NCBI GenBank assembly: GCA_934132895.1
Contig: CAKPAG010000006.1
Span: 933 to 64,932, forward strand
Origin: an uncultured Clostridia bacterium
GTDB taxonomy: Bacteria > Bacillota > Clostridia > TANB77 > CAG-465
Length of the DNA: 64,000 nt
Direction of reading: 5' to 3'
Below the pieces are notes generated by a model. That model saw only the letters and a program-made list of their open reading frames with translations, was not told the DNA's origin and did no database searches. Of this stretch, positions 1 to 53,890 are shown one piece after another. Within the stretch, counting starts at the first letter, position 1. Each line of letters opens with the position of its first letter. The translations under genes and the position numbers were made by a program.

Positions 1-133
1 ATTCTTTATTGGGGTCATCATAAACTCTATCGTTAATTTTATTTTGAACAAGTCTTGAACCAAAAAATTTCCCCATATAGTTATAGAAATTATCTGATTT
101 GTTATTCATTTTCAAAACCATATTTTTCCTCAT
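1..133 (-). CDS. hypothetical protein, N-terminal part only (gene runs off window start)
   Basis: In-frame ATGs at 133/121/109 on minus strand; AAGGAGAAG RBS 9 nt upstream of ATG at 131-133; reads MRKNMVLKMNNKSDNFYNYMGKFFGSRLVQNK... to position 1; begins 17 nt after stop of upstream gene (likely co-transcribed). Confidence 0.35.
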   Translation of the reverse strand, partial: MRKNMVLKMNNKSDNFYNYMGKFFGSRLVQNKINDRVYDDPNKE

Positions 134-151
134 CTTCAACTTCTCCTTTTT

Positions 152-1438
152 TTAATTTGCTTCAGTCATTTGCTTTTGTAAAAATTTATCATCAGTTACT
201 GTAGTAGAATTTAACAAATTATCCCATTTATGAATAAGTCTTTTTAATTCTTTTTCATCTGATTTAGTAGGTGCAAAAGATAATCTTTTTAAATAAAAGT
301 CATTTTTTTCTATTGCTCGTGCTATTCTACGCCAAGATATGGCTTTTTTTTGATTTTCAAGTTTTATCTCTGCTGTTTCTGGTATTTCATCTATTTGAGT
401 TCCATATTTATTTCTATACCAAATCATAAATTTTTTTATTTTTCTATAATAATGAATCATTAAATCTTTGTTATATATACCTATACTTTCAAGTAAAAAA
501 ATTGTATATTCTTGCCAACTCATAAATTTAGGCTTACACGTTCTAATATTTCCAAGTGCCGTTGTTTTACAATATATATTTCCAAAGTTTACACCATTTA
601 CTCTATTTAAAACTTTTGTCCACGTTTCATACTCCAAAGCTTTAAACTGGTTAAGTCCGTTTTTTTGGTCATCCCCATATGGTTGGCATAGTCTTTGTTG
701 ATATATACTTAGTCCATTTTTATACATTAATTCATATATTTCATTAAACATAAAATCAAATTTACTAACTGTTCCCCATATATCATCTGCAGAAAAATCA
801 TATATTGGATAAAAATTAAAAACATCTAAATATTTATCATGCATTTTTATTTTGGTAGTCCATTGATATCCTTTAAATGTTATTTTTTTATCTTGCACTG
901 CTATGGTATTAAAACGATTTAAACTTTCATCAGTTCTTATTCCAACACCACATGCCACTAATCCTCCGTATTTTTCTTGATACCATTTAGGAAACTGAAT
1001 CATAAATTCTTCAAATTCTTCACCAGGTACAAAAAAATCAAATGGACAGTTATTTATATTTATACTATCTTTTGGTAAATCTCTTACCCATAGGTCCTTT
1101 GATTCTTCTTCCCAACATATCCATTTAGGTTGGAGTACTGAGATTGCATTTCTTAGTGCTATAGGAAGAGCAATATGATAAAAATCTCTTACTTGTGGTA
1201 ATTTTTTTAATTCCTCAATATGTTCTACTGTTCTTTTATATTGTGCTTCCAAGTCAATGAATAATACATCAAATTTTTTATTCATCTCTTTTCCAACCAT
1301 ATTAGCAAGCTGTATCATAACAGAACTATCTTTTCCGCCACTCACACTAAAATATACATTATCAAAGTTTGCAAAGATAATTCTTAAACGTTCAATAGCT
1401 GCATCTAAAACATTTTTTTCTAAATACTTCTTTGACAT
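152..1438 (-). CDS. PAPS-reductase-like PP-loop ATP pyrophosphatase with DUF3440-like C-terminal region (IbrA-like)
   Basis: PP-loop motif SVSGGKDSSVMI near N-terminus; ~428 aa; start set at MSKKYLEK (ATG 1436-1438) because AGAGGAAG RBS lies 6 nt upstream, rather than the longer ORF-track start. Confidence 0.6.
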   Translation of the reverse strand: MSKKYLEKNVLDAAIERLRIIFANFDNVYFSVSGGKDSSVMIQLANMVGKEMNKKFDVLFIDLEAQYKRTVEHIEELKKLPQVRDFYHIALPIALRNAISVLQPKWICWEEESKDLWVRDLPKDSININNCPFDFFVPGEEFEEFMIQFPKWYQEKYGGLVACGVGIRTDESLNRFNTIAVQDKKITFKGYQWTTKIKMHDKYLDVFNFYPIYDFSADDIWGTVSKFDFMFNEIYELMYKNGLSIYQQRLCQPYGDDQKNGLNQFKALEYETWTKVLNRVNGVNFGNIYCKTTALGNIRTCKPKFMSWQEYTIFLLESIGIYNKDLMIHYYRKIKKFMIWYRNKYGTQIDEIPETAEIKLENQKKAISWRRIARAIEKNDFYLKRLSFAPTKSDEKELKRLIHKWDNLLNSTTVTDDKFLQKQMTEAN

Positions 1439-1565
1439 ATATAACTTCCTCTTTATATCTAAATTGGAAAATTTTACCAATTTAAAATTAATTATATCAT
1501 GTTTTTTTACAAAAATAAAGTTTTTTCGACATGCAATTTTATATTTTATTTTTATATGAGAAAAA

Positions 1566-1592
1566 AAGTGCTGTAAAAATTTCACAGCACTT
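1566..1592 (-). terminator. Rho-independent terminator after small 83-aa gene
   Basis: GTGCTGTGAAATTTTTACAGCAC hairpin (7-10 bp stem) followed on minus strand by TTTTTTTCTC, 13 nt after stop at 1605. Confidence 0.6.
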
Positions 1593-1604
1593 AAAATATA
1601 TAAT

Positions 1605-1856
1605 TTAAGCAATTGGCATATTGTACTCCATATTTTCAGTATAAAGCTTTGCAATATTTTTAAAAAATGTTATACCTGTTATTTCTGCAGTACGTACTCG
1701 AACATTTTGTCCATTAAGTTCAACATACCCCCTTGCTCGTATTTTTTCACCATCATCAATTAAGCTTTTGGCTTTTGTTACATCTTTAATTTCATCCATT
1801 CCGTTTTCAAAGAAGTCAAGTTTAAAATCTTTCTTTCTTCTCTTTACATTTTGCAT
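1605..1856 (-). CDS. small hypothetical protein (83 aa), standalone unit
   Basis: ATG at 1854-1856 preceded by AAGGAGG RBS (9-nt spacer); own promoter-like element upstream and own terminator downstream; MQNVKRRKKDFKLDFFENGMDEIKD... no recognisable family. Confidence 0.45.
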   Translation of the reverse strand: MQNVKRRKKDFKLDFFENGMDEIKDVTKAKSLIDDGEKIRARGYVELNGQNVRVRTAEITGITFFKNIAKLYTENMEYNMPIA

Positions 1857-1893
1857 AAATTTATGCCTCCTTAAAAAATAATATGTATTTATA

Positions 1894-1922
1894 ATTATAC
1901 TATTTATTACTATTAAAGTCAA
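1894..1922 (-). promoter_or_regulatory. putative sigma-A promoter of the 83-aa gene
   Basis: TATAAT (revcomp of 1894-1899) with 17-nt spacer to TGGACT -35-like hexamer; ~35 nt upstream of RBS. Confidence 0.35.
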
Positions 1923-1951
1923 TACTTTTTATGTAAATTCATTTTATTCAA

Positions 1952-3478
1952 TTACATTCCAGTAAATGGCAATTCTTCAGAATATACCACATTATCATTT
2001 CCGATTGTTAAATTTATAACTTCTCCCATTTTTGTAATTTCAGCTTTAAAAGTATTACTATTTAACACATAATATTTACTTGACTTAATCTCCTTAATAT
2101 AATATTTTCCATATTCTAAGTCCTTTGATGTAGCAACACCATTTTTATCTGTAGTTATAGTATCTACCAATTCGTTATTTTCATTATATATGTTAAAAAC
2201 TGTATCACATAATGGTGTATTTTTCTTTAAACCAGAGAGTTTATTATCTTCATTACTTAACTTTAATATTTTTATATTTCCTTTTATTTTATCATTAGAT
2301 ATAGAAATAGTATTTTCTTTTTCCATTTTAACTTTTATATTATATGCATTTTCTTCTTTTGAAATATAATAGCCTTTAGAAGCTTCTATTTCTTTTAGTT
2401 CTAATTCTTCTGATTTAAAAATTTTTAAATCTTTTGAAATATCTAAGTTTATCTCACCATTTTCATCTGTTACATATTCTCCTAAAAGTCTACCTGTTGA
2501 TTTCAAACTTATACTAAATTTGGTATTTGGAAGCCTAATAGCATTATCATCTTTATCTACTTTTATAATCTTTAAATACGTTGGAATATATTTTAATTCA
2601 TTATCCATTTTAATAATATTTGTTTTTAAAGGTCTTAAAGCAAGTGCTGTATTTTGCTTTGATGAGTCTAAAGATGCACCAAACATAACAGAATTTTCTT
2701 TTACTAATGTATCAAATTCTAGACTAAATTTTATATTTTCTAATACTTTATTTCTTTTTATTAATATTTTTACCTCTTTTTGATTTGTAATTTTATCTAT
2801 TTTGTTATTATTTAAATCTGTAATAATAGCCTCTAATGAATTTTTCCTTAAAACTATTTCTTTTACATTTTCGTTATACTCTAATTTTATTTTTTTGCTA
2901 TAATATTCCTCGTCTTTATCATCTATTTTAAATTCTTTTGATACCTCTACTATATTTACTGTATTTGGTAAAATCTCAGTGTTTATACCTTTTTCATATA
3001 TGTTTCTTATTGCATTTGCAACTTTTATTCCCTCCTGATTTAATGCCTCAATTTTTCCAAAATCTAAATTGCTAACATAACACCAAGCTGCAAACTGAGT
3101 TGCAAACTTTGCTTCATCTTCTGTACTTAAACCTAACTCACTTGGACTTTTATATGGATAGCCATTAAGTATTATGTTATTAAGCGTCTTATCTTGTAGC
3201 TTTTCATTTACATTTACATCATACTCTCCTTTTTCTGCGCCATCCATTCCAAGATTTATACAATATGCAGGATATCTAACCCCTTCATTATCTAAATAGT
3301 AATAGTCAAAAAAACGTTGCGAAATACCATTATATTTTATATATCTATTCTCATTTTTATTATATTTTATTCTATGCGTACCTAAATCAATATTTGTATT
3401 ATCATACGCTGCAAATATTTTGCTCATTGTAACTATTATTAATAACAAAAAAGCAATTATTTTATTTTTCTTTATCAT
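1952..3478 (-). CDS. secreted thioester-domain (TQXA) adhesin-like protein ending in LPFTGM
   Basis: N-terminal signal peptide MIKKNKIIAFLLLIIVTMSKIFA; Cys...Gln thioester signature (PAYCINLG ... FATQFAAW); C-terminus ...EELPFTGM then TAA with no hydrophobic tail; ATG overlaps sortase stop (TAATG) with AAGGGGGAA RBS. Confidence 0.6.
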   Translation of the reverse strand: MIKKNKIIAFLLLIIVTMSKIFAAYDNTNIDLGTHRIKYNKNENRYIKYNGISQRFFDYYYLDNEGVRYPAYCINLGMDGAEKGEYDVNVNEKLQDKTLNNIILNGYPYKSPSELGLSTEDEAKFATQFAAWCYVSNLDFGKIEALNQEGIKVANAIRNIYEKGINTEILPNTVNIVEVSKEFKIDDKDEEYYSKKIKLEYNENVKEIVLRKNSLEAIITDLNNNKIDKITNQKEVKILIKRNKVLENIKFSLEFDTLVKENSVMFGASLDSSKQNTALALRPLKTNIIKMDNELKYIPTYLKIIKVDKDDNAIRLPNTKFSISLKSTGRLLGEYVTDENGEINLDISKDLKIFKSEELELKEIEASKGYYISKEENAYNIKVKMEKENTISISNDKIKGNIKILKLSNEDNKLSGLKKNTPLCDTVFNIYNENNELVDTITTDKNGVATSKDLEYGKYYIKEIKSSKYYVLNSNTFKAEITKMGEVINLTIGNDNVVYSEELPFTGM

Positions 3479-4119
3479 TAATTTTCCCCCTTTATTTCTA
3501 CAGCTCTTAAGCATAATCTTTTGTTTTTATCATTATTTATAGTGCAAGTTATACAAGTAATAACGTTTTCATTAGTTTCTTCTAAAACTGAAAAATCATT
3601 ACTTGCTACTTCAAAAATTTCTTTAACTGCATATTTTCTTTGAGCCCCATTAAAACTATATATAATCTTATCTCCAGTCTTTAGGGTATGCAAATTTTTA
3701 AACAGATCTGAAGTATATACAGAATAATTATGTGCTGCCAAACAAACATTTCCATTAAAGTCTGCTGAAAATGTAAAATGTCCTACATTATTTTTTAATG
3801 TATCTTGGTCAACGCCTTCATGTATTTCTTCATTATACATATTAATGCTTGGAATTGTTATATACTTATTACTTTTATTATAATTATTTGAAGTAGAGTT
3901 ACTAACACTTTCCACATCATTTACATATGCTTCTTTATAGTTTAAATTTTTTTCTTTAGTATCTTCGATTTTACTTATCTTTAAGTCTTTTTCTTTTACA
4001 TTAGGATTTAATTTTAAGATTAAAAATATTGAAAGTAACAATATTAAATAGAAAATAATACCTAGAATTAATACTTTTGAATTTAATGTTATTTTTTTAA
4101 GATTTATACTTTTTCTCAT
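3478..4119 (-). CDS. sortase family transpeptidase
   Basis: N-terminal TM anchor, LAAHN and VITCITC (TLxTC-like catalytic Cys) motifs; translationally coupled to downstream LPxTG protein. Confidence 0.7.
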   Translation of the reverse strand: MRKSINLKKITLNSKVLILGIIFYLILLLSIFLILKLNPNVKEKDLKISKIEDTKEKNLNYKEAYVNDVESVSNSTSNNYNKSNKYITIPSINMYNEEIHEGVDQDTLKNNVGHFTFSADFNGNVCLAAHNYSVYTSDLFKNLHTLKTGDKIIYSFNGAQRKYAVKEIFEVASNDFSVLEETNENVITCITCTINNDKNKRLCLRAVEIKGEN

Positions 4120-4278
4120 ATTGATATGATTTTTAAATTTATATTTATATATTACATGATAAAAAAATATATATATTTAAATATTTGAATTAAAAACTTA
4201 TATGAATTAAAGTTTGAAACAATACACCTATATTATATATTTGCAGTATCTGAAAGTCAAGAAAAATCGGTCGTAAAA

Positions 4279-4317
4279 TTTCGACAAAAAAAGAGAAAAC
4301 AATTTACATATTTGTCT
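4279..4317 (-). terminator. Rho-independent terminator after DUF3006/MBL operon
   Basis: AGAGAAGACAAATATGTAAATTGTTTTCTCT hairpin followed by TTTTTTTGTCG on minus strand, ~20 nt after stop at 4336. Confidence 0.55.
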
Positions 4318-4335
4318 TCTCTTAATTTACTCTTA

Positions 4336-4563
4336 TCAAAGCCAAAGGTCCTTAGTTAAATCATCTATTTCCATTTTTCTTTTTTGGGTTTCATCTATGT
4401 CTAAAACATATTTTTTTCCATCAAATTCTAATACGTCCCCTTCTTTAACATCTTTAGGCAAATCCTTTTTTAATATGTTTACAAATTTAAGCTCTGAAGT
4501 TTCACATACTGCAAACTCCTCCTCAAATCTATCTATTATATACTGTACCTTATTATTTTCCAT
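4336..4563 (-). CDS. DUF3006-like small protein
   Basis: 75 aa; 11-nt overlap with upstream MBL gene (common MBL+DUF3006 pairing). Confidence 0.4.
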   Translation of the reverse strand: MENNKVQYIIDRFEEEFAVCETSELKFVNILKKDLPKDVKEGDVLEFDGKKYVLDIDETQKRKMEIDDLTKDLWL

Positions 4564-5512
4564 AATTATATGAGCCCTCCTTTACATTAAACGAGATATT
4601 TTCTCCATCAGTATTAATTACAACAGTTCCACTTTCATCAGTCCTATACACTGGTATATTGTTTTCTTTAAGCTTTTTCATTGTTTGTTTAGATGGATGT
4701 GAATAATCATTATTCTTACCACAAGATATAACAACAGCTTCTGGCGATACTCTATTTAAAAAAGTGTCTGAAGTAGAAGTTTTTGAGCCGTGATGTCCAA
4801 GTTTTAAAACATCTGCTTTAACATCATATCCTTTTGCTAAAATTTGATTTTCAGATAGTTCTTCTGCATCTCCCATAAACAAAAAAGACCTATTTTTATA
4901 TGTTAGTTTTATTACTATAGAATAATCATTTGCCTCTTTATACTCTGATGAGTTAGGTGCTAACACTTTAAAAGTAGCATCTCCAAACTCAAATTCTTCT
5001 CCTGAATTTGGTGCATATAATTTTTTATTCTTACTCTTAACAGCTTTAGCAAAGTTTTCAAATGTTTTAGTAGAAGATTTTTGTTTTGGAAACAGTATCT
5101 TGTCTATTTGAAAAGTTGAAATAACTTTATCCATTCCTCCAATATGGTCTTCATGTGCATGTGTACCAATAACATAATCAAATTTTTTTACTCCTTGCTC
5201 TTTTATATAATTTACAAGCATATCCTCAGTATCATTTTTTCCAGCATCTATTAACATTGCATGTTCACCAGTTGTTATTAAAATAGCATCTGCCTGACCA
5301 ACATCAATATATCTAATTACAAGTGCTGGTTCTACTGTACTTGATACTATAGATTTTTCATTTTCACTTTCGTTAAGTATACTCTCTTGAACATTCTCAT
5401 TATTTTCTTCTTTATTTGCAAATTCTGTAAAATAGCTTGTAAGTACACCAGCTACCACAACAACTAAGAAAAAAATAATTTTTAACAATTTTTCTTTGGA
5501 CTTTTTCTTCAT
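4553..5512 (-). CDS. secreted MBL-fold metallo-hydrolase (ComEC C-terminal-domain-like)
   Basis: signal/TM N-terminus; HAHEDHIGG metallo-beta-lactamase motif; GHHGSKTSTS. Confidence 0.65.
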   Translation of the reverse strand: MKKKSKEKLLKIIFFLVVVVAGVLTSYFTEFANKEENNENVQESILNESENEKSIVSSTVEPALVIRYIDVGQADAILITTGEHAMLIDAGKNDTEDMLVNYIKEQGVKKFDYVIGTHAHEDHIGGMDKVISTFQIDKILFPKQKSSTKTFENFAKAVKSKNKKLYAPNSGEEFEFGDATFKVLAPNSSEYKEANDYSIVIKLTYKNRSFLFMGDAEELSENQILAKGYDVKADVLKLGHHGSKTSTSDTFLNRVSPEAVVISCGKNNDYSHPSKQTMKKLKENNIPVYRTDESGTVVINTDGENISFNVKEGSYNYGK

Positions 5513-11176: not shown

Positions 11177-11806
11177 TTATTCATTATTTCTTACTATTAA
11201 CTCTTCTACTATTTTATATACACTACTATGGGGATTACACTTTTCACTATCTAAAATTTTCCCTAATTTTAATTGATAAGATTCAAGTTTTTTAGCATTT
11301 TTTATTGCCTGATTAGTTAAATCTTTAATTATTAAATATGTATTATCTTTCTTTAAATAATTAGGTATGTATTTCTTTAACTCCTCCTGTAATTCACTAT
11401 TTGTAGCAAATGTTTTGGTAGTAAATCCAAAGTGCAATAGGAACCACACTTCAAAAGTAGGAGTTGAAGTAATTATCTCAATACCACTTTCTTTTGCTAA
11501 TTTTTTAGCCGCATCTATTTGATCATTTTTATTTTGACCAACATCCGTATCAAATACTGCATAAATCTTATCGTTTTCTTCCACTTCTATCTCACTATGA
11601 ATAAAATTAATCAGTTCTTGTACAATTCCTTTGGGATCAGTACTATTACCTCTCGAAAATTTAATAATACACTTTCTACTATTAAAGTTTCTAAAATATA
11701 TCTTTTCAGTTTTATTATTTCCTTCACACCCAATTATAACAAAAGGATTCCTTTTCCTTTTTTCAGTATTTCTTTTTCTTTGATTAAATTTTCTTACTCC
11801 TGCCAT
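11177..11806 (-). CDS. RloB-like (Toprim-like) protein, AbiLii-like partner
   Basis: N-terminal VIIGCEGNNKTEKIYF (RloB family CEG-x-TE motif), DTD acidic motif; overlaps upstream ATPase by 13 nt. Confidence 0.6.
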   Translation of the reverse strand: MAGVRKFNQRKRNTEKRKRNPFVIIGCEGNNKTEKIYFRNFNSRKCIIKFSRGNSTDPKGIVQELINFIHSEIEVEENDKIYAVFDTDVGQNKNDQIDAAKKLAKESGIEIITSTPTFEVWFLLHFGFTTKTFATNSELQEELKKYIPNYLKKDNTYLIIKDLTNQAIKNAKKLESYQLKLGKILDSEKCNPHSSVYKIVEELIVRNNE

Positions 11807-13077
11807 ATGTTATTTTCAACTGCTACAAAAGGGATCGCCCCATATCTTCCATTCAAATATCCTTTTTGAATGTTTTCTGTTTTTCTTACAGAAAAATCGT
11901 CCAATGGATATAATTCTGTAGCCCCTTTCTTTTGATCTTTTTCAGCAAACCATATTTGATCCCTTCTAAATAAGTCTAGTGACAACAAATTAGTGTCGTG
12001 TGTGTTAAATATTAACTGAGCATTTTTTTTGTTTATTTCTGAATTGTGAAAAAATTTAATTATCATTTCAACCAAATTAGGATGTAAACTTTTTTCTATT
12101 TCATCTATTGCTATAACCTTTCCATTTTCAAATGCATTTTTTAATAATGGTGCCATTGAAAAAAGTATTCGCGTACCTGATGATTCATTATTAAAATTTA
12201 ACTCAAACACTGTAGGTTTTCCATTTTTATCTATTACTTCATGAGCCATAGTTATACTTTTAATTATTTTTGCTTTAGGCATGATCATATTAGGAGAAAT
12301 ATTGATATTATTTAGTTGCATTAGTATATTATTTTCTATTTCTTTTTCTTCAATTTCAACATTATAATCTTTGATAACAATATCTGATTCTTCTAGCAAT
12401 CTTAGAGTAAATTTTTTTAAACTTTCATTTTCATCATTATCATATGCTTCCAAAGAAAAGGGCGTTAATTCCATTCCCCCAGAATATGTGTCTATCATTT
12501 TCGCAAACCATAGATATGGTTTTTTAGTTTTATCATAATTCCAAGTAGTAGCTGTAGCCAAAAACAATTTATTGTCTAAATTTTGATTTTTAATTGAGTT
12601 AAGTTTTCCCTCATCTGACTGTAAAAATTTATATTCACTACAATTAGTCCTTTCAAATATTCTTGTTGCTTTGGCAGATAAAAACTGATATAAATATTCC
12701 TCATATACCCTCTCTTTATCTGCTTTAAAGCCATATACATATTTTGTTGAATCAACATAAAAAATAAATTCAAATTCACATGGACTATTTTTTGATTCAT
12801 TATCAAAAGCAAAAGGTTCCATTTGAGATAATTTTTCTCCTGGCTGTCTACTATTAGATAATCTCACCATCATTACTGCGGCAGAAATAGCATTAATCAA
12901 GTTAGTTTTTCCAGATGCATTTGCTCCATATAAAGCTGTTGTTTTTAATACTCTTTCTTTAGATCCATTTAAAGTAACAACATTATTAATGTTCTCTTCT
13001 CCTAAGCCTGCCTCCATACTAAAATCTTGCTTCTCTTTAAATGACATGAAATTTTTTACACTAAACTGAATTAACAT
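11794..13077 (-). CDS. AAA_21/ABC-type ATPase (AbiLi-like)
   Basis: N-terminal FxxFKNF...ALYGANASGKTNLINAI Walker A; C-terminal VIAIDEIEKSLHP Walker B/D-loop; start set at MLIQFSVKNF (AGAGGTGA RBS). Confidence 0.65.
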   Translation of the reverse strand: MLIQFSVKNFMSFKEKQDFSMEAGLGEENINNVVTLNGSKERVLKTTALYGANASGKTNLINAISAAVMMVRLSNSRQPGEKLSQMEPFAFDNESKNSPCEFEFIFYVDSTKYVYGFKADKERVYEEYLYQFLSAKATRIFERTNCSEYKFLQSDEGKLNSIKNQNLDNKLFLATATTWNYDKTKKPYLWFAKMIDTYSGGMELTPFSLEAYDNDENESLKKFTLRLLEESDIVIKDYNVEIEEKEIENNILMQLNNINISPNMIMPKAKIIKSITMAHEVIDKNGKPTVFELNFNNESSGTRILFSMAPLLKNAFENGKVIAIDEIEKSLHPNLVEMIIKFFHNSEINKKNAQLIFNTHDTNLLSLDLFRRDQIWFAEKDQKKGATELYPLDDFSVRKTENIQKGYLNGRYGAIPFVAVENNIWQE

Positions 13078-13195
13078 AAAATCACCTCTTACTATATTAT
13101 ACACTTTTTCTAAAAAAATGCAACTGTATTTTATTAATATTTTAAGCTTTTATGCATTTTTTATTCATTTTTAGTAAAAATAATATGATAATAAA

Positions 13196-41788: not shown

Positions 41789-42830
41789 TTAATCTTCATC
41801 ACTATCAGCTACCTCGATATCTTTTATATGTAATGCAATATCTTCGGCTTTAGGTAATTGTTTTTGCAAATATTCTGGAATATCTTCTAATAGTTTGTAT
41901 TCACTAACTCCTATTGGATTATTTACATTTCTCAAAGCATACTCTGCTGTCAATTTATCTTTTCCTTTGCATAATAGAATACCAATTGTAGGATTATCTC
42001 CTTTTTTTCTTAATATATCATCAACAGCAGACAAGTAAAAATTAATTTGCCCTGCATCTGTTGGCTTAAATTTTCTGGCTTTTAATTCAACTACAATATA
42101 ACATCTTAATTCTAGATGATAAAATAATAGATCTATAAAATAATCCGTATCGCTAACCGTGATTTTATATTGATTTCCCACAAAGGCAAATCCATTTCCA
42201 AGTTCAATAAGTACATCTTTTATTTTATTTATCATAGCATTTTCAATTTTTATTTCATTTGAATATTTTTTTAATGAAATAAAATCAAACAAATATGGAT
42301 CTTTCATTGTTTGCATTGCTAAATCGCTCTGCACATTTGGAAGAGTGGCAGAAAAATTAGTTGTTTTTTCTGCTATAGCTTGTCTTTCATATAACTTACT
42401 TGCAATTTGCATTTCTAGTACATTTACAGACCATCCATTTTTTATAGTTTGACTAATATACCATTTTCTAATCTCAACATCTTTTATTTTTTCCATTAGC
42501 AATACATTATGTGTCCAAGGAATTTGTGCAGTTATTGACTGCACAAATTCAAAATCCTGATATTCTTCTGCAAATCTTCTCATATTTTTTAAATTTCTAA
42601 CCGAAAATCCGCCTTATTTCAGGAAATTCTAATTTTAAATCTATTGATAAATTATCTACAAATTTATTTCCCCACTGACTGTTTTTTAAAATAATCTTAC
42701 CTATGTTCCAATATAAGAAAATAAGTTCTTTATTAACAGCCTGCATTGCTCGATATTGAGATTTTAAAATTTCTTGTTTAATATTAAGCCAATTTAGTTT
42801 TATTTTATTTTTTCTATTGTAATTTTTCCA
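41789..42830 (-). pseudogene. YhcG-like (DUF1016) PDDEXK nuclease-fold gene with frameshift(s), 5' end overlapping clpC 3' end
   Basis: ORF 41789-42583 starts at MRRFAEEY; upstream in another frame KLNWLNIKQEILKSQYRAMQAVNKELIFLYWNIGKIILKNSQWGNKFVDNLSIDLKLEFPEIR then +1 frame GFSVRNLKNMRRFAEEY; one-nt insertion near 42607-42615 (AGGCGGATT); no in-frame start for N-terminal segment (MEKLQ* in third frame). Confidence 0.5.
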
Positions 42831-47307: not shown

Positions 47308-47413
47308 TAGCTCTAAAAAAAATATATATATTTGAATAACAAAAGTATAATAAAATGAACTCTATTATTATGCCAAACGGTTTAATAATTTGAGTTCATT
47401 TCATATTTTTAAA

Positions 47414-48943
47414 TTATTTTTCTTTACTATATATAGCCTCTATCTTACTTGGATTTATACTAGTACCAATTGATATATTATTAATTCCATTTATAGTTGA
47501 TATTTCTGGTAGATTTAGTATTTTTTCTTCAGTCTTAGATTCTAATGTAGTACAAACTTTTACAGGTTTATTTTCATTTTTTAAATCAGATAAATATTTT
47601 TTGAATCCAGATACACTTACATCATAATTTAAATTTGTTAAATAAGTTTTGTTAATCTTTAATTGATAAAATTTAGTATTTGAAATATTACAACCTTCAA
47701 CATCTTGTGTAAATATTGAAGCCCTACCAGGATATTTTTCTACTAATATATTAGATAATAATCTACCATTTGAAAGTAGGTCACTATCTGATAAAAAGAA
47801 TCTTTGATTAACTACATTAGTTCCACTTCCACCTAATTCCCATCTTTCTGTGCCATCAAATACTCTTCCTTTTATATTTCTTACAATTTTTTTATTCTTA
47901 AAGTCTATATAATCTACTGCATCTCCAACTTTTCTTAAAGGTTCATTTAAAAATATGTTTGTTGTAGTGCCTTCTACGTATGGCTCATAATCTGTAGCAG
48001 CAGTTCCCAATTCTATTTGAATATTTTTTATTATTGAATCTGCTCCACCTTGTGCAGAAGTTTGCTTATACAAATAGACACCACTATCTAACATCTCCTG
48101 TGTAGCTATATACTTTGTTTTATTGGTAATATAAGTATTGTAACTCGAACTTGTATTATTTAAATAAATCTGACTATAACCATTTGTTTCCATAGAAAAT
48201 ACAAATTCATCTCCTACTTTTAAATTTGGAGCCAACTGCGATAACTTTTTACCTGTAAATGATGGATAACTTTTTACTGTTATGCTTCCGTCTCCATTAT
48301 CTAAAATACGAGTTCCGGTTATGCACTCTTTTATATCAAATAAATTTTTTCCAGTCACTGTTACAGGTATTTTATATTTTCCATAATTAGAGTCATTTGT
48401 GTCTGTTACTAATTCTCCTACACTTTGTATTTCTACTGGATTATCTGGTGTAGGTGTACCATTTTGTATACTATTACCATATATCCTTAAGTTTTCTAAT
48501 TTTCCAACAGTAGCATTATCTATCTGAATATTTTTACTATCACTTGATACGGCTTTATCATAGTTTGTATTTTCTCCTGTTAATGTCTCATTAGCCCAAT
48601 TATACTCTTGCATATTTGATTCATCTGTATATTCTAAACTTCCACCATTTATAGCTATTTTTTCTATATATTTATCTTTTATACCTGGTAAAATATTTTT
48701 TATATCTTCACCTGACTTATTCAAATCACTTACATTATATGTTCCTTGACTATCTGCATATTGTTTTTGAATGTATAAATCTAATTCTTCCTTTAGCGTT
48801 ATTATATCATTTTGAAATGTTGCTTTTTTAGCATTTTCAATTGGATTGTTATTTGCAATAGAAAGTATTACTGCTACTGCCAATATTATAATTACTATTA
48901 TTGTTATTACTAGTACTATAAGTGATATACCTCTTTTTTTCAT
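47414..48943 (-). CDS. mosaic pilin-like N-terminus surface protein, paralog 1 (509 aa)
   Basis: MKKRG/ISLIVLVITIIVIIILAVAVIL class-III-signal-like segment (no Glu+5); ~200-aa N-terminal region ~95% identical to paralog 2; distinct central module; conserved C-terminus IPEISTINGINNISIGTSINPSKIEAIY. Confidence 0.6.
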   Translation of the reverse strand: MKKRGISLIVLVITIIVIIILAVAVILSIANNNPIENAKKATFQNDIITLKEELDLYIQKQYADSQGTYNVSDLNKSGEDIKNILPGIKDKYIEKIAINGGSLEYTDESNMQEYNWANETLTGENTNYDKAVSSDSKNIQIDNATVGKLENLRIYGNSIQNGTPTPDNPVEIQSVGELVTDTNDSNYGKYKIPVTVTGKNLFDIKECITGTRILDNGDGSITVKSYPSFTGKKLSQLAPNLKVGDEFVFSMETNGYSQIYLNNTSSSYNTYITNKTKYIATQEMLDSGVYLYKQTSAQGGADSIIKNIQIELGTAATDYEPYVEGTTTNIFLNEPLRKVGDAVDYIDFKNKKIVRNIKGRVFDGTERWELGGSGTNVVNQRFFLSDSDLLSNGRLLSNILVEKYPGRASIFTQDVEGCNISNTKFYQLKINKTYLTNLNYDVSVSGFKKYLSDLKNENKPVKVCTTLESKTEEKILNLPEISTINGINNISIGTSINPSKIEAIYSKEK

Positions 48944-49087
48944 AAATCATTCTCCTCTTTTTATTATTTGCTTTTTAGCAATAATTATTATACAATAAAA
49001 TTCAACATCTTGCAATAAGTTTACAATAAATTTACCATAATTTTTAATACAAAAAGATGGCTATATTAGCCATCTCTCCTATTAATT
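48944..49087. repeat. repeated intergenic unit (terminator + promoter + palindromic 5'UTR), copy 1
   Basis: near-identical to 50654-50797; contains AGATGGCTA-ata-TAGCCATCT terminator hairpin (minus), TTGCAA-17-TATAAT promoter, TTATTTGC-TTTTT-AGCAATAA palindrome, AAGAGGAGAA RBS. Confidence 0.7.
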
Positions 49088-50653
49088 TTATTTTCCATAT
49101 ACAACTTCCATTTTGCTTGGATTTACACTAGTCCCTATTGATATATTATTGGTTCCATTTATAATTGATATTTCTGGTATTTCTATTGTTTCTTCAGTTG
49201 GTGTATTTAGTACATAAAATAATTTTGGATTATTGTTTAAAAGCCATCCTCTAAATGCTACTTTATCGGCTGCAGCAACGATTTCGCTATTAATTCCAAT
49301 GAATATTCTTTGCAGTTCTGGTTTTAAAGTAATATGATTACTACCACTAAGATGATTAGTATTCATTTCAAAATGAGTACAAATTAAATCTGAATTATTT
49401 GTTTTTGAGTAAGTAAAATTATAATATATTGAATATCCATTAACTGACAACATTGAAGCATACTCATGAAAACTATTTCTTATATCAGATAAGTTTTCAA
49501 CCCCTACATTTCTTACTACTTTTTTATTTTTAAAATCTATATAATCTACTGCATCCCCAACTTTTCTTAAAGGCTCATTGAAATAAATATTGGTTGTTTG
49601 CCCTTTATATGGTTCGTAATCTGTTTCTTTGTTTCCTTCTTCAATTTGAAATGTATTAATATCTATATAATTTTTAAAGCAATAATTATGGCTTATTGTT
49701 CCTATTTCTTTTATAGTTTTATTAGCTTTAGATGTATATGATATATGTTTCCATTCAGTTTCATAATTTGGATTTGAAACTACAATATCGTCTCTAGAAC
49801 TGTCAGTATACCAAATATAAAGTAAACCTGATGTTTTATTCGGAGCTGAAGATGAGTTCATTGTCTGTTTATAATCAAAAGAAAAAGTATATTGGGTATT
49901 TTCCTTAAAATAAATATCTGAATATTTCATCTCAAAGTTATCAATAAAAGAGATACAATCTCTATCATCCAACTTTATTTCAGTATATCCAGAATCATTT
50001 GCAGTTCCAGCTGATTTCTTTAGTCCGCTATATACTTGTTTGGCTGTTCCAATATTTTTGCCAGTTACTGTTACAGGTATTTTATATTTTCCATAATTAG
50101 AGTCATTTGCGTCTGTTACTAATTCTCCTACACTTTGTATTTCTACTGGATTATCTGGCGTAGGTGTACCATTTTGTATACTATTTCCATATATTTTTAA
50201 ATTTCCCAGTTTCCCAGCAGTAGCATTATTTATCTGCATATTTTTACTATCACTTGATACGGCTTTATCATAGTTTGATTTTTCTCCTGTTAATGTCTCA
50301 CTAGCCCAATTATACTCTTGCATATTTGATTCATCTGTATATTCTAAACTTCCACCATTTATAGCTATTTTTCCTATATATTTATCTTTTATATCTGGTA
50401 AAATATCTTTTATATCTTCACCTAACTTATTCAAATCACTTGCTTTATATGTTCCCTGACTATCTACATATTGTTTTTGAATGTATAAATCTAATTCTTC
50501 CTTTAGCGTTGCTATATCATTTTGAAAAGCCGCCTTTTTAGCATTTTCTATTGGATTATTATTTGCAATAGATAGTATTACTGCTACTGCCAATATTATA
50601 ATTACTATTATTGTTATTACTAGTACTATAAGTGATATACCTCTTTTTTTCAT
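49088..50653 (-). CDS. mosaic pilin-like N-terminus surface protein, paralog 2 (521 aa)
   Basis: same N-terminal 200 aa as paralog 1; central module ...FKENTQYTFSFDYKQ...QIEEGNKETDYEPY shared with paralog 3; C-terminus IEIPEISIINGTNNISIGTSVNPSKMEVVYGK. Confidence 0.6.
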   Translation of the reverse strand: MKKRGISLIVLVITIIVIIILAVAVILSIANNNPIENAKKAAFQNDIATLKEELDLYIQKQYVDSQGTYKASDLNKLGEDIKDILPDIKDKYIGKIAINGGSLEYTDESNMQEYNWASETLTGEKSNYDKAVSSDSKNMQINNATAGKLGNLKIYGNSIQNGTPTPDNPVEIQSVGELVTDANDSNYGKYKIPVTVTGKNIGTAKQVYSGLKKSAGTANDSGYTEIKLDDRDCISFIDNFEMKYSDIYFKENTQYTFSFDYKQTMNSSSAPNKTSGLLYIWYTDSSRDDIVVSNPNYETEWKHISYTSKANKTIKEIGTISHNYCFKNYIDINTFQIEEGNKETDYEPYKGQTTNIYFNEPLRKVGDAVDYIDFKNKKVVRNVGVENLSDIRNSFHEYASMLSVNGYSIYYNFTYSKTNNSDLICTHFEMNTNHLSGSNHITLKPELQRIFIGINSEIVAAADKVAFRGWLLNNNPKLFYVLNTPTEETIEIPEISIINGTNNISIGTSVNPSKMEVVYGK

Positions 50654-50797
50654 AAATCATTCTCCTCTTTTTATTATTTGCTTTTTAGCAATAATTATTA
50701 TACAATAAATTTCGACACGTTGCAATAAGTTTACAATAAATTTACCATAATTTTTAATACAAAAAGATGGCTAAATTAGCCATCTCTTCCATTACTT
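50654..50797. repeat. repeated intergenic unit, copy 2
   Basis: see copy 1. Confidence 0.7.
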
Positions 50798-52771
50798 TTA
50801 TTTTCCATATATAACTTCCATTTTACTTGGATTTACACTAGTGCCAATTGATATATTATTGGTTCCATTTATAGTTGATATTTCTGGTATATTTATGCTT
50901 TCTTGTTTTTTATTTATTAATACATAGTCTACTACTATATTATGAGACTTTACCCAAGCTTTAAAATCATTTGCACTATCTGCAGTTAATCTATTTTTAG
51001 CAATACTTACATAAATATAATTCTTTTCTAAAGAATAAATTGCTTCATTACTAGCATTAATCGTACTCGAAACATTAGAAGAAAAAGTATTTGATATAGC
51101 AGATCCAAACTGTATACCACTTAGTGAACAAGCATAAGTATGATAATTATCACCATTTTTATAATTCCACCAATTTTCATTTCCTTTTAATGTAGTTTCA
51201 CCTATACTTCTTACGACTTTTTTATTTTTTAAATCTATATAATCTGCATATTCTCCTATTTTTCTTAAAGGTTCATCTAAATATATATATATAGTTTTTT
51301 CTTTATATGGTTCATACCCTGTTTCTTTGTTTCCCTCTTCAATCTGAAATGTATTGATATCTATATAATTCATAAAGTGATAATTATAACTTATTGTTCC
51401 TATTGACTTTATAGTTTTATTAGCTTTAGACGTATAAGAAATATGCTTCCATTTCACATCCTCATTTGAGTTTGAAACTTTAATGCTTTCATTTGAATCA
51501 TCAGTATAATAAATACAAAGTAAAACTGCATTTTTGTTGTTTGCTTCGGATGAGTTTACTAATTGTTTATAGTCAAAGGAGAACGTATATTGAGTATTTT
51601 CTTTAAAGTTAATACCTGTATATTGGGTACCTCTATTATCTATAAAGCCAACACACTCTCTACCATCAAGTGTTGTTTCTGTATACCTTGATTCTGTTGC
51701 CAATCCACTATAAACTTGTTTAGCTGTTCCTAAATTTTTACCTACTGCTGTTAATGTTATAGGTATTGCATATTTCCCATATGCTACGTATTCTGTTGCA
51801 ATGTTTCCCTCTTCTAATTGAATGGAATTTTCATCAAAATAACATCCTTGGCTATATGAATATGTTGTTTCAATATGGCTAATTGTTTTACCTAAATTAG
51901 ATTTCAAGGTATACGAGTTCCATGTGGAATCATTTTTAACATAAATCGTACTTCCTGTACCATCTGTATAAACAAATTTAAAACCTGTAGAAACACCTGT
52001 CCCTACTATTCCTTTTGCTCTAAAACTAAGAATATACTGAGTTTGGGGTTTAAATTGTCCAGACATATATGGTTTTCCATTACTGCCACCCCTTGGACTA
52101 TAATATATACAGCTAGTACCATCAACTTCTGTCTTTTCTACATATTTGGTTGAAAAACTTCTTAAAAATTCATACCATTTATTTACATCAAATTTATTTT
52201 TTATATCTCCAACACTTTCTATCTCTACTGGATTATCTGTACTAGGCGTTCCATTTTGTACACTATTTCCATATATTTTTAGATTTTCTAGTTTATCTTC
52301 AAATTCAGTATCAATTTGTGCAGTACCATTATCAGATTCTGCTTTATCATAATCTGCTGTTATTCCATCAAAAACTTCCACAGCCCACGAGTATTCTTTC
52401 ATATTTGAATAGTCATAATAATTTAATCTGCCACCTATTATTTTTATTTTATTTAAATACTTATCATTTATACTAGGTAAAACTAACTTAATATTTTGAT
52501 CTGTTTGTTCGATTCCATCCTCAACTAAAATATTTTCATCTGCATACAATTCTTCTACTTCATATACTCCTTGATTTTCCGCCATTTTTCTATGTATGTA
52601 TGTATTTAAGTCTTCTTTTAAAGCAGACATATCAGTTTCAAAAGCAACCTTTTTAGCATTTTCTATTGGATTATTATTTGTAAGTGTTAATATTATTGCT
52701 GCAGAAAGTACTATTGTTACTGCTATTGTTATCACAAGTACTATAAGTGATATTCCTTTTTTTTCTCTCAT
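50798..52771 (-). CDS. mosaic pilin-like N-terminus surface protein, paralog 3 (657 aa, two central modules)
   Basis: MREKKG/ISLIVLVITIAV...; more divergent N-region but conserved LENLKIYGNSVQNGTPSTDNPVEIESVG block; two beta-rich modules; C-terminus INIPEISTINGTNNISIGTSVNPSKMEVIYGK. Confidence 0.6.
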   Translation of the reverse strand: MREKKGISLIVLVITIAVTIVLSAAIILTLTNNNPIENAKKVAFETDMSALKEDLNTYIHRKMAENQGVYEVEELYADENILVEDGIEQTDQNIKLVLPSINDKYLNKIKIIGGRLNYYDYSNMKEYSWAVEVFDGITADYDKAESDNGTAQIDTEFEDKLENLKIYGNSVQNGTPSTDNPVEIESVGDIKNKFDVNKWYEFLRSFSTKYVEKTEVDGTSCIYYSPRGGSNGKPYMSGQFKPQTQYILSFRAKGIVGTGVSTGFKFVYTDGTGSTIYVKNDSTWNSYTLKSNLGKTISHIETTYSYSQGCYFDENSIQLEEGNIATEYVAYGKYAIPITLTAVGKNLGTAKQVYSGLATESRYTETTLDGRECVGFIDNRGTQYTGINFKENTQYTFSFDYKQLVNSSEANNKNAVLLCIYYTDDSNESIKVSNSNEDVKWKHISYTSKANKTIKSIGTISYNYHFMNYIDINTFQIEEGNKETGYEPYKEKTIYIYLDEPLRKIGEYADYIDLKNKKVVRSIGETTLKGNENWWNYKNGDNYHTYACSLSGIQFGSAISNTFSSNVSSTINASNEAIYSLEKNYIYVSIAKNRLTADSANDFKAWVKSHNIVVDYVLINKKQESINIPEISTINGTNNISIGTSVNPSKMEVIYGK

Positions 52772-53001
52772 ATTCTTCCCTCTCTATATTCCTATATATT
52801 TTAATAACACTATTATATAATAAATCTTTTATTATATCAATAAATTTAGAATAATATTTTCAAACAATCTTTTACTAGAAAAATAATGTCAAAATTTATA
52901 CATTATTAGCGATTTAATTGAATATATTATACTAATGTTATATATTCCTTACTACAGGGATTTTTAACCAATATATTAATATATAAAGGGGATGAAAAAA
53001 T

Positions 53002-53400
53002 TTGAAAGGAGTAAATATTAATCTAATACCTAAGTACATTTTAAAAGAATTAGCCGTCTTAGAAGAAGTATCTATGTTTATCTTACCAAATGGATACATT
53101 ATAAACGGAAAATATTTAAATGACTGGGAAAGTACATTAAAAGATAAATTATATAAAATATATGAAAGACATGGAGTATATGTAAACATTGAAATAACTA
53201 CTTTTAGTTTAGCTAGTAAAAAAATAGAGCAAAAAAATTTAGTTATAGATGTTAAGCACCTTACCAAACTTTTAATGAGCTACTTAGTAAAAAATATATC
53301 TGTCTCTATTATAATTAATAATTATCATAACAGATATGGTTATTTGATAATTCCTGGTGAACAATTCAAAAGAGATAAGGTGAATATTTATAATATGTAA
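53002..53400 (+). CDS. small hypothetical protein (132 aa), paralog of next gene
   Basis: shares LIPxxxLKxxxxxxxFxLPNGYxxxxxxxxxWEStLKDkLxxIYExxG...TxxxL pattern with 53522-53890. Confidence 0.4.
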   Translation: MKGVNINLIPKYILKELAVLEEVSMFILPNGYIINGKYLNDWESTLKDKLYKIYERHGVYVNIEITTFSLASKKIEQKNLVIDVKHLTKLLMSYLVKNISVSIIINNYHNRYGYLIIPGEQFKRDKVNIYNM

Positions 53401-53521: not shown

Positions 53522-53890
53522 ATGCCAAACTATTTAATTCCTGAAGAACTTTCAAAAATTTCAACTAATATGAAGTTTTTGCACACTTCTTCAAATGATC
53601 CCAAAGTTATCTTTTTAGCGCCCAGCAGTGAAAAATTCTTCCTGAACTTTCCTAAAGCTTGGGAAACACCACTAAAAGATAATTTAAGCTCTATATACGA
53701 AGATGGAGCTAACAGATATTCTTTTACTATTTCAACTTATGACGGAGAAAAAATATCTTCCTATTCCTTAAACATGTTAGGTCTAGAGTTTAAAGATTAC
53801 TTAGCAGGAATTTTAAAATTCTCTAAAACTATCTCTTTATCTGTAGCATGTGGAACCAAAGCTGCAAATTATATAATTTGCAAAGCTTAG
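53522..53890 (+). CDS. small hypothetical protein (122 aa), paralog of previous gene
   Basis: AAAGGAGGG RBS; weak but consistent similarity to 53002-53400. Confidence 0.4.
   Translation: MPNYLIPEELSKISTNMKFLHTSSNDPKVIFLAPSSEKFFLNFPKAWETPLKDNLSSIYEDGANRYSFTISTYDGEKISSYSLNMLGLEFKDYLAGILKFSKTISLSVACGTKAANYIICKA

Follow-up and report, generated by a model that had tools for sequence, protein, structure and literature searches.

A three-gene array between rpoD and ctsR

We analyzed a 64,000-nucleotide stretch (the window, at its full length) of contig CAKPAG010000006.1, a chromosome segment of about 26% GC from an uncultured, spore-forming, Clostridium-like organism of the human gut. Its gene content includes the spoIIIA operon, SMC, SecA, ctsR-mcsA-mcsB-clpC, and dnaG-rpoD. 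Between rpoD and ctsR lie three tandem minus-strand genes, here called g1, g2, and g3, whose open reading frames (ORFs) are all intact. Our ORF calls agree exactly with an initial annotation, which had described three same-strand genes of 509, 521, and 657 amino acids (aa). Each protein joins an N-terminal pilin module to a body made of a hinge, one or two modules resembling carbohydrate-binding modules (CBMs), a linker, and a C-terminal domain. The layouts below are approximate; module types refer to the typing of strains described further on.

g1, 47414-48943, minus strand: ORF of 509 aa, module type N2-M3-C3; pilin module aa 1-133, hinge 134-198, divergent CBM-like module 199-326, linker 327-359, C-terminal domain 360-509
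g2, 49088-50653, minus strand: ORF of 521 aa, module type N2-M2-C2; pilin module aa 1-133, hinge 134-198, one CBM-like module 199-353, linker 354-385, C-terminal domain 386-521
g3, 50798-52771, minus strand: ORF of 657 aa, module type N1-M1-C1; pilin module aa 1-145, YGNS hinge 146-195, CBM-like module A 196-345, CBM-like module B 346-495, EPLRK linker 496-525, C-terminal domain with conserved tail 526-657
g3 pilin module (approximate), 52337-52771, minus strand: from the AlphaFold2 (AF2) model and the alignment with operon pilins
g3 pair of CBM-like beta-sandwich modules (approximate), 51287-52186, minus strand: A 51737-52186, B 51287-51736

The repeats that the initial annotation had claimed were recovered at the DNA level. 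The near-identical N-terminal region of g1 and g2 shows 94.2% identity over the first 600 nt, g2 and g3 share a beta-rich module and linker at 73.5% identity over about 600 nt, and the tail common to all three genes is a 3' repeat with 79-85% identity. Four human-gut metagenome contigs, independent of one another and drawn from different samples and studies, show the same three-gene layout.

The pilin module and a type IV pilus operon

A prepilin-like N-terminus with Val at position +5 had been proposed for all three proteins, and our analysis bears this out. The g1 and g2 proteins begin with MKKRG/ISLIVLVITIIVIIILAVAVIL and g3 with MREKKG/ISLIVLVITIAVTIVLSAAIIL (slash, end of the leader), so that a short basic leader ending in Gly passes directly into a hydrophobic stretch of about 20 residues. 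In g3, the leader is followed by ISLIVLVITI..., a long helix (aa 9-65), and a small alpha/beta head. The AF2 model of g3 shows this helix kinked at Pro34 and the head extending to about residue 135; the predicted local distance difference test (pLDDT) over the pilin module lies mostly between 81 and 94 and dips once, at residues 71-90.

The resemblance to pilins extends well beyond the helix. Residues 1-150 of g2 and g3 align end to end, at 29-36% identity, with small pilins of 139-167 aa encoded in type IV pilus (T4P) operons of the same and related species, as the earlier reading of a pilin-like anchor would predict. Invariant positions in this alignment are G-1, ISLIVLVITI, NNP, D48, and a Trp in the head domain. 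Because the alignment covers the whole length and the model contains both helix and head, the N-terminus is a full pilin module and not a mere hydrophobic helix; the N-terminal ~135-150 aa of g1-g3 are thus a complete pilin module.

Standard annotation resources do not recognize this module. Searches with g1-g3 in Pfam, NCBIfam, PADLOC, and PDB sequences returned nothing significant, in agreement with the initial statement that the proteins belong to no recognized family, and Pfam and NCBIfam gave sub-threshold hits only (Pilin_N, E 0.037; GspG, E 0.02). A known defense system was considered as the identity of g1-g3 and rejected, PADLOC giving no match.

The class is nevertheless large. Searching with g2 residues 1-151 retrieved 438 proteins, most of which measure 100-260 aa and have the common start (K/R)G/ISLIVLVITIIV...NNNPIENAKKA. 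A profile of the pilin module matched 1,999 cluster representatives (50%-identity clusters) at E<=1e-10, with an N-terminal match in the best 150 of these 1,999. In 126 new top profile matches, the +5 residue is Val in 113, Thr in nine, Ile in three, Met in one, and Glu in none. The ISLIVLV motif is tightly conserved over these 126 cluster representatives, and in the alignments that we examined no member of the class departs from Gly at the position just before the hydrophobic stretch. Of the 126, 81 reach a length of 300 aa or more and hence carry other grafted bodies.

Since the small pilins of the operons and 126 of 126 top matches likewise have no Glu at +5 (Glu5), its absence is a lineage trait and not evidence for a tip subunit. 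The GspK-type rationale that had been offered for the missing Glu5 is therefore not the best one.

Other gut Clostridia have the same Glu5-less module fused with dockerin (PF00404) or LRR_5 (PF13306) domains (P0161-P0174, P0123, P0144, P0145 in our protein numbering). From these fusions, the pilin module seems to be a general display chassis.

In three species, small Glu5-less proteins occupy the pilin position of PilMN-PilB-PilT-PilC operons. Among these proteins is P0206 (139 aa), whose 105.9-kb contig also carries a version of the array with two copies. Its T4P operon runs in the order PilM/N-like, four small membrane proteins, P0206, a protein with an A24 N-terminal domain (A24_N), two minor-pilin-like proteins, PilB (MshEN+T2SSE), PilT (1e-84), and PilC (2.5e-49). 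A homologous operon in each of the two further species has one to three tandem small pilins of the Glu5-less type. The P0206 locus, L014 in our numbering and from a 97%-identical strain, corresponds to window positions 1-5269 at 97% identity, and by this synteny the operon would start about 1.2 kb past the left edge of the window and some 50 kb away from the array.

The gene in the pilD position of these operons (L014:10777-11586, L097:10637-11440, L099:11583-12386) encodes the A24 N-terminal Zn-finger domain (5e-29). The C-terminal half of its product is a pilin-like segment that does have Glu5 (KKKG/VFVAELVVAMI), an arrangement kept in all three species.

Two neighboring features of the operon were also recorded. 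Directly after pilC lies a gene for a polytopic membrane protein of 491 aa whose C-terminal domain is soluble (L097:16424-17899, L099:17371-18846); judged by eye, this protein could be a glycosyltransferase- or oligosaccharyltransferase-like putative pilin modifier. Between spoIIIA and the T4P operon, the window carries a sortase gene and a TED/SpaA-type sortase-pilin gene (1952-4119, minus strand; Pfam labels from the 97%-identical L014). This pair looks like an insertion, because the T4P operon directly follows spoIIIA in the related species of L097 and L099.

A phage-type body reassorted between strains

From the end of the pilin module onward, the three proteins are homologous to phage tail-fiber and receptor-binding proteins (RBPs). 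Residues 146-632 of g3 match PHROG 6782, annotated as tail fiber, at 1.7e-10, g2 residues 201-354 match PHROG 3791 at 1e-5, and tblastn found a Thomasclavelia phage tail fiber at 2e-14. The AF2 model of g3 (pLDDT 88.8; predicted TM-score 0.79) consists, beyond the pilin module, of two beta-sandwich modules, the linker, and the C-terminal domain. Compared with BFVD by Foldseek, it retrieved phage tail, RBP, BppU, and Dit proteins, down to 6e-21. The g3 body is thus predicted to fold as CBM-like beta-sandwiches, and no CBM family in Pfam matches the g1-g3 sequences.

Two motifs delimit the modules in all three proteins, the hinge IYGNSxQNGTPxPDNPVEI and the linker EPLRKxGDxxDYIDxKNKKVVR. The additional divergent module copy that had been noticed in g3 goes undetected by BLAST, yet modules A and B are homologous by profile-profile comparison (probability 100%) and the predicted fold agrees. 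For g1, the initial annotation had called the middle module unrelated, and the middle core indeed has no BLAST similarity to the middle of g2; an hhalign match to the module family (97.8%, E 1e-12, 84 columns) makes it probable instead that this core belongs, as a divergent member, to the same CBM-like family. The C-terminal domains of g1, g2, and g3, variable but ending in the conserved tail, are mutually homologous (99.9%, profile-profile). As a control, the CBM-like modules and the C-terminal domains were unrelated to each other in the same type of comparison.

A full-length search identified 373 unannotated relatives, whose N-termini fall into five classes: canonical prepilin (KGFTLIELLAVI, PF07963), Glu5-less, PilX-like, SipW/TasA-like signal peptide, and none. 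The canonical prepilin start is joined to the same body in other gut Firmicutes, and in L027 such a gene stands directly after pilC and a full-length pilD. In one case, a body homolog without a transmembrane segment lies in a phage structural region. On viral contigs (IMG/VR), none of 24 body copies has a pilin module or a hydrophobic/transmembrane start; where g1-g3 have the pilin module, the phage versions have an N-terminal segment of ~40-60 aa, presumably a tail adaptor. The N-termini of chromosomal copies are of pilin or signal type. The named-genome matches are all uncultured gut metagenome-assembled genomes (MAGs) of Clostridia, Bacilli, and "Tenericutes", some with a dozen loci.

As side observations, MAG CAKOLD01 has at least 12 loci of the body family. 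An N-terminus ending ...GLTYAYY, like the SipW/TasA type, precedes the body in L024, L026, L034, L036, L049, L056, L072, L074, and L090 (uncultured Bacilli/"Tenericutes" MAGs), and in L074 genes of this type flank pilC and pilD.

The array itself differs between close relatives. At the rpoD-ctsR locus, four strains with flanks 97-99% identical to the window have two, three, four, or five array copies. For module typing, proteins were cut at the hinge and linker and the pieces clustered at 85% identity. M2 was found paired with C2, C3, or C1, M1 with C1 or C5, M3 with C3 or C6, and C2 with N2-M2 or N1-M4. Sliding-window identity revealed chimeric genes that switch sharply at the hinge and the linker, the two conserved junctions. 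Gene 4 of L007, for example, is g2-like to about residue 360 and thereafter has the g3 C-terminus at 95-98% identity. The earlier idea of cassette diversification, with copy number and module shuffling in relatives as its check, is supported by these strains with two to five copies whose genes are chimeric of one another. In two strains, an array copy of type N3-M6-C4 is broken by a stop after ~87 codons (L006:6481-8109, L007:8173-9855), so array members can decay into pseudogenes. Tandem arrays of the Glu5-less class recur in other lineages (L011/L017, L044, L077). Diversification of the diversity-generating retroelement type, or by another local process, was set aside; the evidence sought on this point was limited to repeats.

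The spacers of the array are repeated as well. The g3-g2 and g2-g1 intergenic regions are near-identical, and both contain a stable hairpin with a U-run and a TTGCAA-17-TATAAT site:

50654-50797, minus strand: g3-g2 intergenic cassette; hairpin at ~50755-50794 (z -4.57), promoter-like TTGCAA-17-TATAAT at 50697-50725, strong ribosome-binding site
48944-49087, minus strand: g2-g1 intergenic cassette; hairpin at ~49044-49085 (z -5.04), promoter-like site at 48987-49015
52812-52840, minus strand: promoter-like site TTGATA-17-TATAAT upstream of g3, unlike the repeated cassette
47350-47404, minus strand: hairpin after the g1 stop codon (z -6.97), in sequence unlike the other two hairpins

The initial annotation had assigned each gene its own repeated promoter/terminator cassette. 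This holds for the two spacers, whereas the promoter region of g3 and the terminator of g1 differ. The hairpin distal to g1 is probably the terminator of the whole array, ahead of the ctsR promoter. Promoter-like sites in the array region are not above chance for such AT-rich DNA (50 found, 46 expected). A generic terminator scan gave zero sites; direct folding instead shows strong hairpins.

Probable modular pilins and competing explanations

We think it probable, with some reserve, that g1-g3 represent a Glu5-less pilin class not annotated before, and that they are modular type IV pilins acting as recombining glycan-binding adhesins. Under this reading, the leader would be cleaved and the pilin module, once inserted into the membrane, would be taken up by the T4P machine encoded about 50 kb away. 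The pilus would then display the glycan-binding modules at the cell surface. With so bulky a body, the proteins would most likely be low-abundance or tip subunits, and the displayed modules could let the cell adhere to carbohydrate ligands. Homologous recombination at the two conserved junctions, and within the near-identical pilin modules and spacers, would reassort modules and alter copy number, and the outcome could be a strain-specific adhesin repertoire.

The concept of a modular pilin has been published for Streptococcus sanguinis, where PilB joins a pilin to a vWA domain and PilC joins one to a ConA-like lectin (Raynaud et al., 2021, PMC8179133; PMC10191384; see also Shahin et al., 2023, PMC9934059). 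In the sense of Raynaud et al. (2021), g1-g3 have the layout of modular pilins as well: their pilin module is joined to a body also found outside T4P biology. In both systems, an N-terminal pilin module bears a grafted adhesive or lectin-type module, with predicted display at the tip or at low abundance. They differ from PilB and PilC in a class III signal without the IPR012902/PF07963 motif and Glu5, in a multi-domain body homologous to phage RBPs, and in standing outside the pil operon as a tandem array of variable copy number that recombines between strains. Peptidase S74 is a domain associated with phage tail fibers. Pilin fusions to this family (IPR012902-IPR030392) are included in the published survey (PMC8179133). 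Our literature searches turned up neither pilins fused to phage RBPs nor Glu5-less pilins from Clostridia.

Among other known systems, phage RBPs and tail fibers with CBM modules (PHROG 6782 and 3791; the tail fiber of Thomasclavelia phage TR-TP1; the BppA tripod of Tuc2009, PDB 5e7t) share with g1-g3 the homologous hinge, CBM-like beta-sandwiches, linker, and C-terminal domain, as well as mosaic exchange at conserved junctions. The array proteins differ from them in their N-terminal pilin module of ~135-150 aa, their chromosomal housekeeping context, and the promoter-like site and terminator hairpin of each gene. The type IVb minor pilins CofB and TcpB, like g1-g3, have a pilin module followed by beta-rich domains that include a beta-sandwich. 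Both have Glu5 and are single-copy operon genes, unlike g1-g3, and we detected no sequence relationship to them, although no search aimed at one was made. In Neisseria pilE/pilS, pilin diversity arises by recombination among linked homologous cassettes. Here, all copies are instead full-length genes with their own promoter-like sites, and reassortment is known from the comparison between strains. CofB and TcpB are located at the tip, where they bind ligands or effectors (PMC8179133; PMC10191384), and tip pseudopilins of the GspK/PilK type have no Glu5, which the tip subunit does not need (PMC10191384). The latter resemble g1-g3 in this trait and differ in that the small pilins of the operon here are also Glu5-less. 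Neither NCBIfam nor Pfam gives g1-g3 a GspK match, and the g3 model shows beta-sandwich modules and no GspK alpha-domain.

Several observations weigh against the modular-pilin interpretation. Residue +5 of g1-g3 is Val and not Glu or Asp, Glu5 being a hallmark of assembling pilins, and the N_methyl motif (PF07963/IPR012902/TIGR02532) is unmatched in Pfam and NCBIfam. The array stands outside the pil operon, about 50 kb away, and the operon lies beyond the window, its presence in the window's own genome following from synteny. The PilD-like protein of this clade lacks the catalytic "SD" and "GGGD(I/V)KL" motifs seen in the PilD of L027 and L074; with these Asp motifs absent from the A24_N protein, no processing enzyme is identified in the linked operon. 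Finally, pilus display is not obligatory for the body, because the same body is also fused to the non-pilin SipW/TasA-like signal.

These points lend weight to the strongest alternative, that g1-g3 are signal-anchored surface proteins that never polymerize, the uncleaved helix having no role but that of a type II membrane anchor, and the modules being displayed independently of a pilus. The absent Glu5 and unmatched pilin hidden Markov models, the operon without a catalytic prepilin peptidase, the lack of linkage between array and pil operon, and the body's association with a SipW/TasA-like signal peptide would all be expected of such proteins. Homology to the pilin-sized operon proteins, however, runs past the helix into the head domain, a plain anchor requires neither the invariant Gly nor the tight ISLIVLV motif, and the same body occurs in relatives that have bona fide prepilin signals. 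We regard this alternative as unlikely while taking it seriously.

A lesser candidate is that the proteins are substrates or pseudopilins of a T4P machine with a type II secretion-like function and are released or shed. T4P-dependent secretion has been proposed for Clostridium perfringens (bioRxiv 10.1101/2024.11.04.621531), and the bulky bodies may not fit inside a filament. The sequence carries no pointer to release, however, and the architecture fits described modular pilins (PMC8179133), making this explanation improbable.

We assign a still smaller chance to a prophage or tailocin remnant or cargo, with g1-g3 as tail-fiber genes serving a phage-tail-like particle. The homology of the body to phage tail fibers and a mosaic recombination pattern typical of phage RBP genes would fit, but the 64-kb window contains no phage genes, the flanks are housekeeping genes (dnaG-rpoD, ctsR-clpC), and the position of the locus is conserved across strains. 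Moreover, all 24 viral copies lack the pilin module of g1-g3, and PADLOC finds nothing. Last, shared ends produced by a collapsed or mis-joined repeat, a doubt raised with the initial annotation, can practically be dismissed: although 94% identical repeats over 600 nt could confuse short-read assemblers, the four independent contigs reproduce the layout, the paralogs differ consistently at ~6% of positions, and the ORFs are intact.

If g1-g3 are modular pilins, they document module exchange between phage RBPs and bacterial pilus subunits and offer a testable model for how gut commensals diversify adhesion specificity from strain to strain. A large pilin class (~2,000 50%-identity clusters, the majority bearing grafted bodies, in uncultured human and animal gut Firmicutes) has been missed by current annotation. 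For the T4P field, the question arises of how Glu5-less pilins are processed and assembled when the operon has no recognizable catalytic prepilin peptidase. A more far-reaching proposal, which we offer tentatively and as the less probable outcome, is that these bacteria possess a distinct, hitherto unrecognized gut-Clostridia branch of type IV filaments, in which every pilin, from the putative major pilin of the operon to the bulky modular ones, has the Glu5-less G/ISLIVLV start, the catalytic half of PilD is replaced by a pilin-like segment, and the filament is a chassis for receptor-binding modules that are exchanged directly with the tail fibers of phages. Such a branch would provide recombining, phage-style recognition of cell-wall or host glycans for adhesion, co-aggregation, or the targeting of other bacteria.

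Other genes of the window were noted in passing. Between rpoD and the array, on the opposite strand, lie two small divergent ORFs of 132 and 122 aa (53002-53400 and 53522-53890, plus strand). They look paralogous (WE(S/T)xLKDxL..IYE) and are conserved in all strains examined; no Pfam match is on record for them and PADLOC returned nothing. Downstream of clpC, a DUF1016/YhcG-type gene of 264 aa (41789-42583, minus strand) is present in the window, L001, L006, and L007 and absent from L005, and is thus a strain-variable insertion. An overlapping pair of genes encoding 436 and 209 aa occupies 11177-13104 (minus strand); read by eye, the N-terminal sequences would suggest an AAA-type ATPase with an RloB-like partner, a putative abortive-infection or defense pair.

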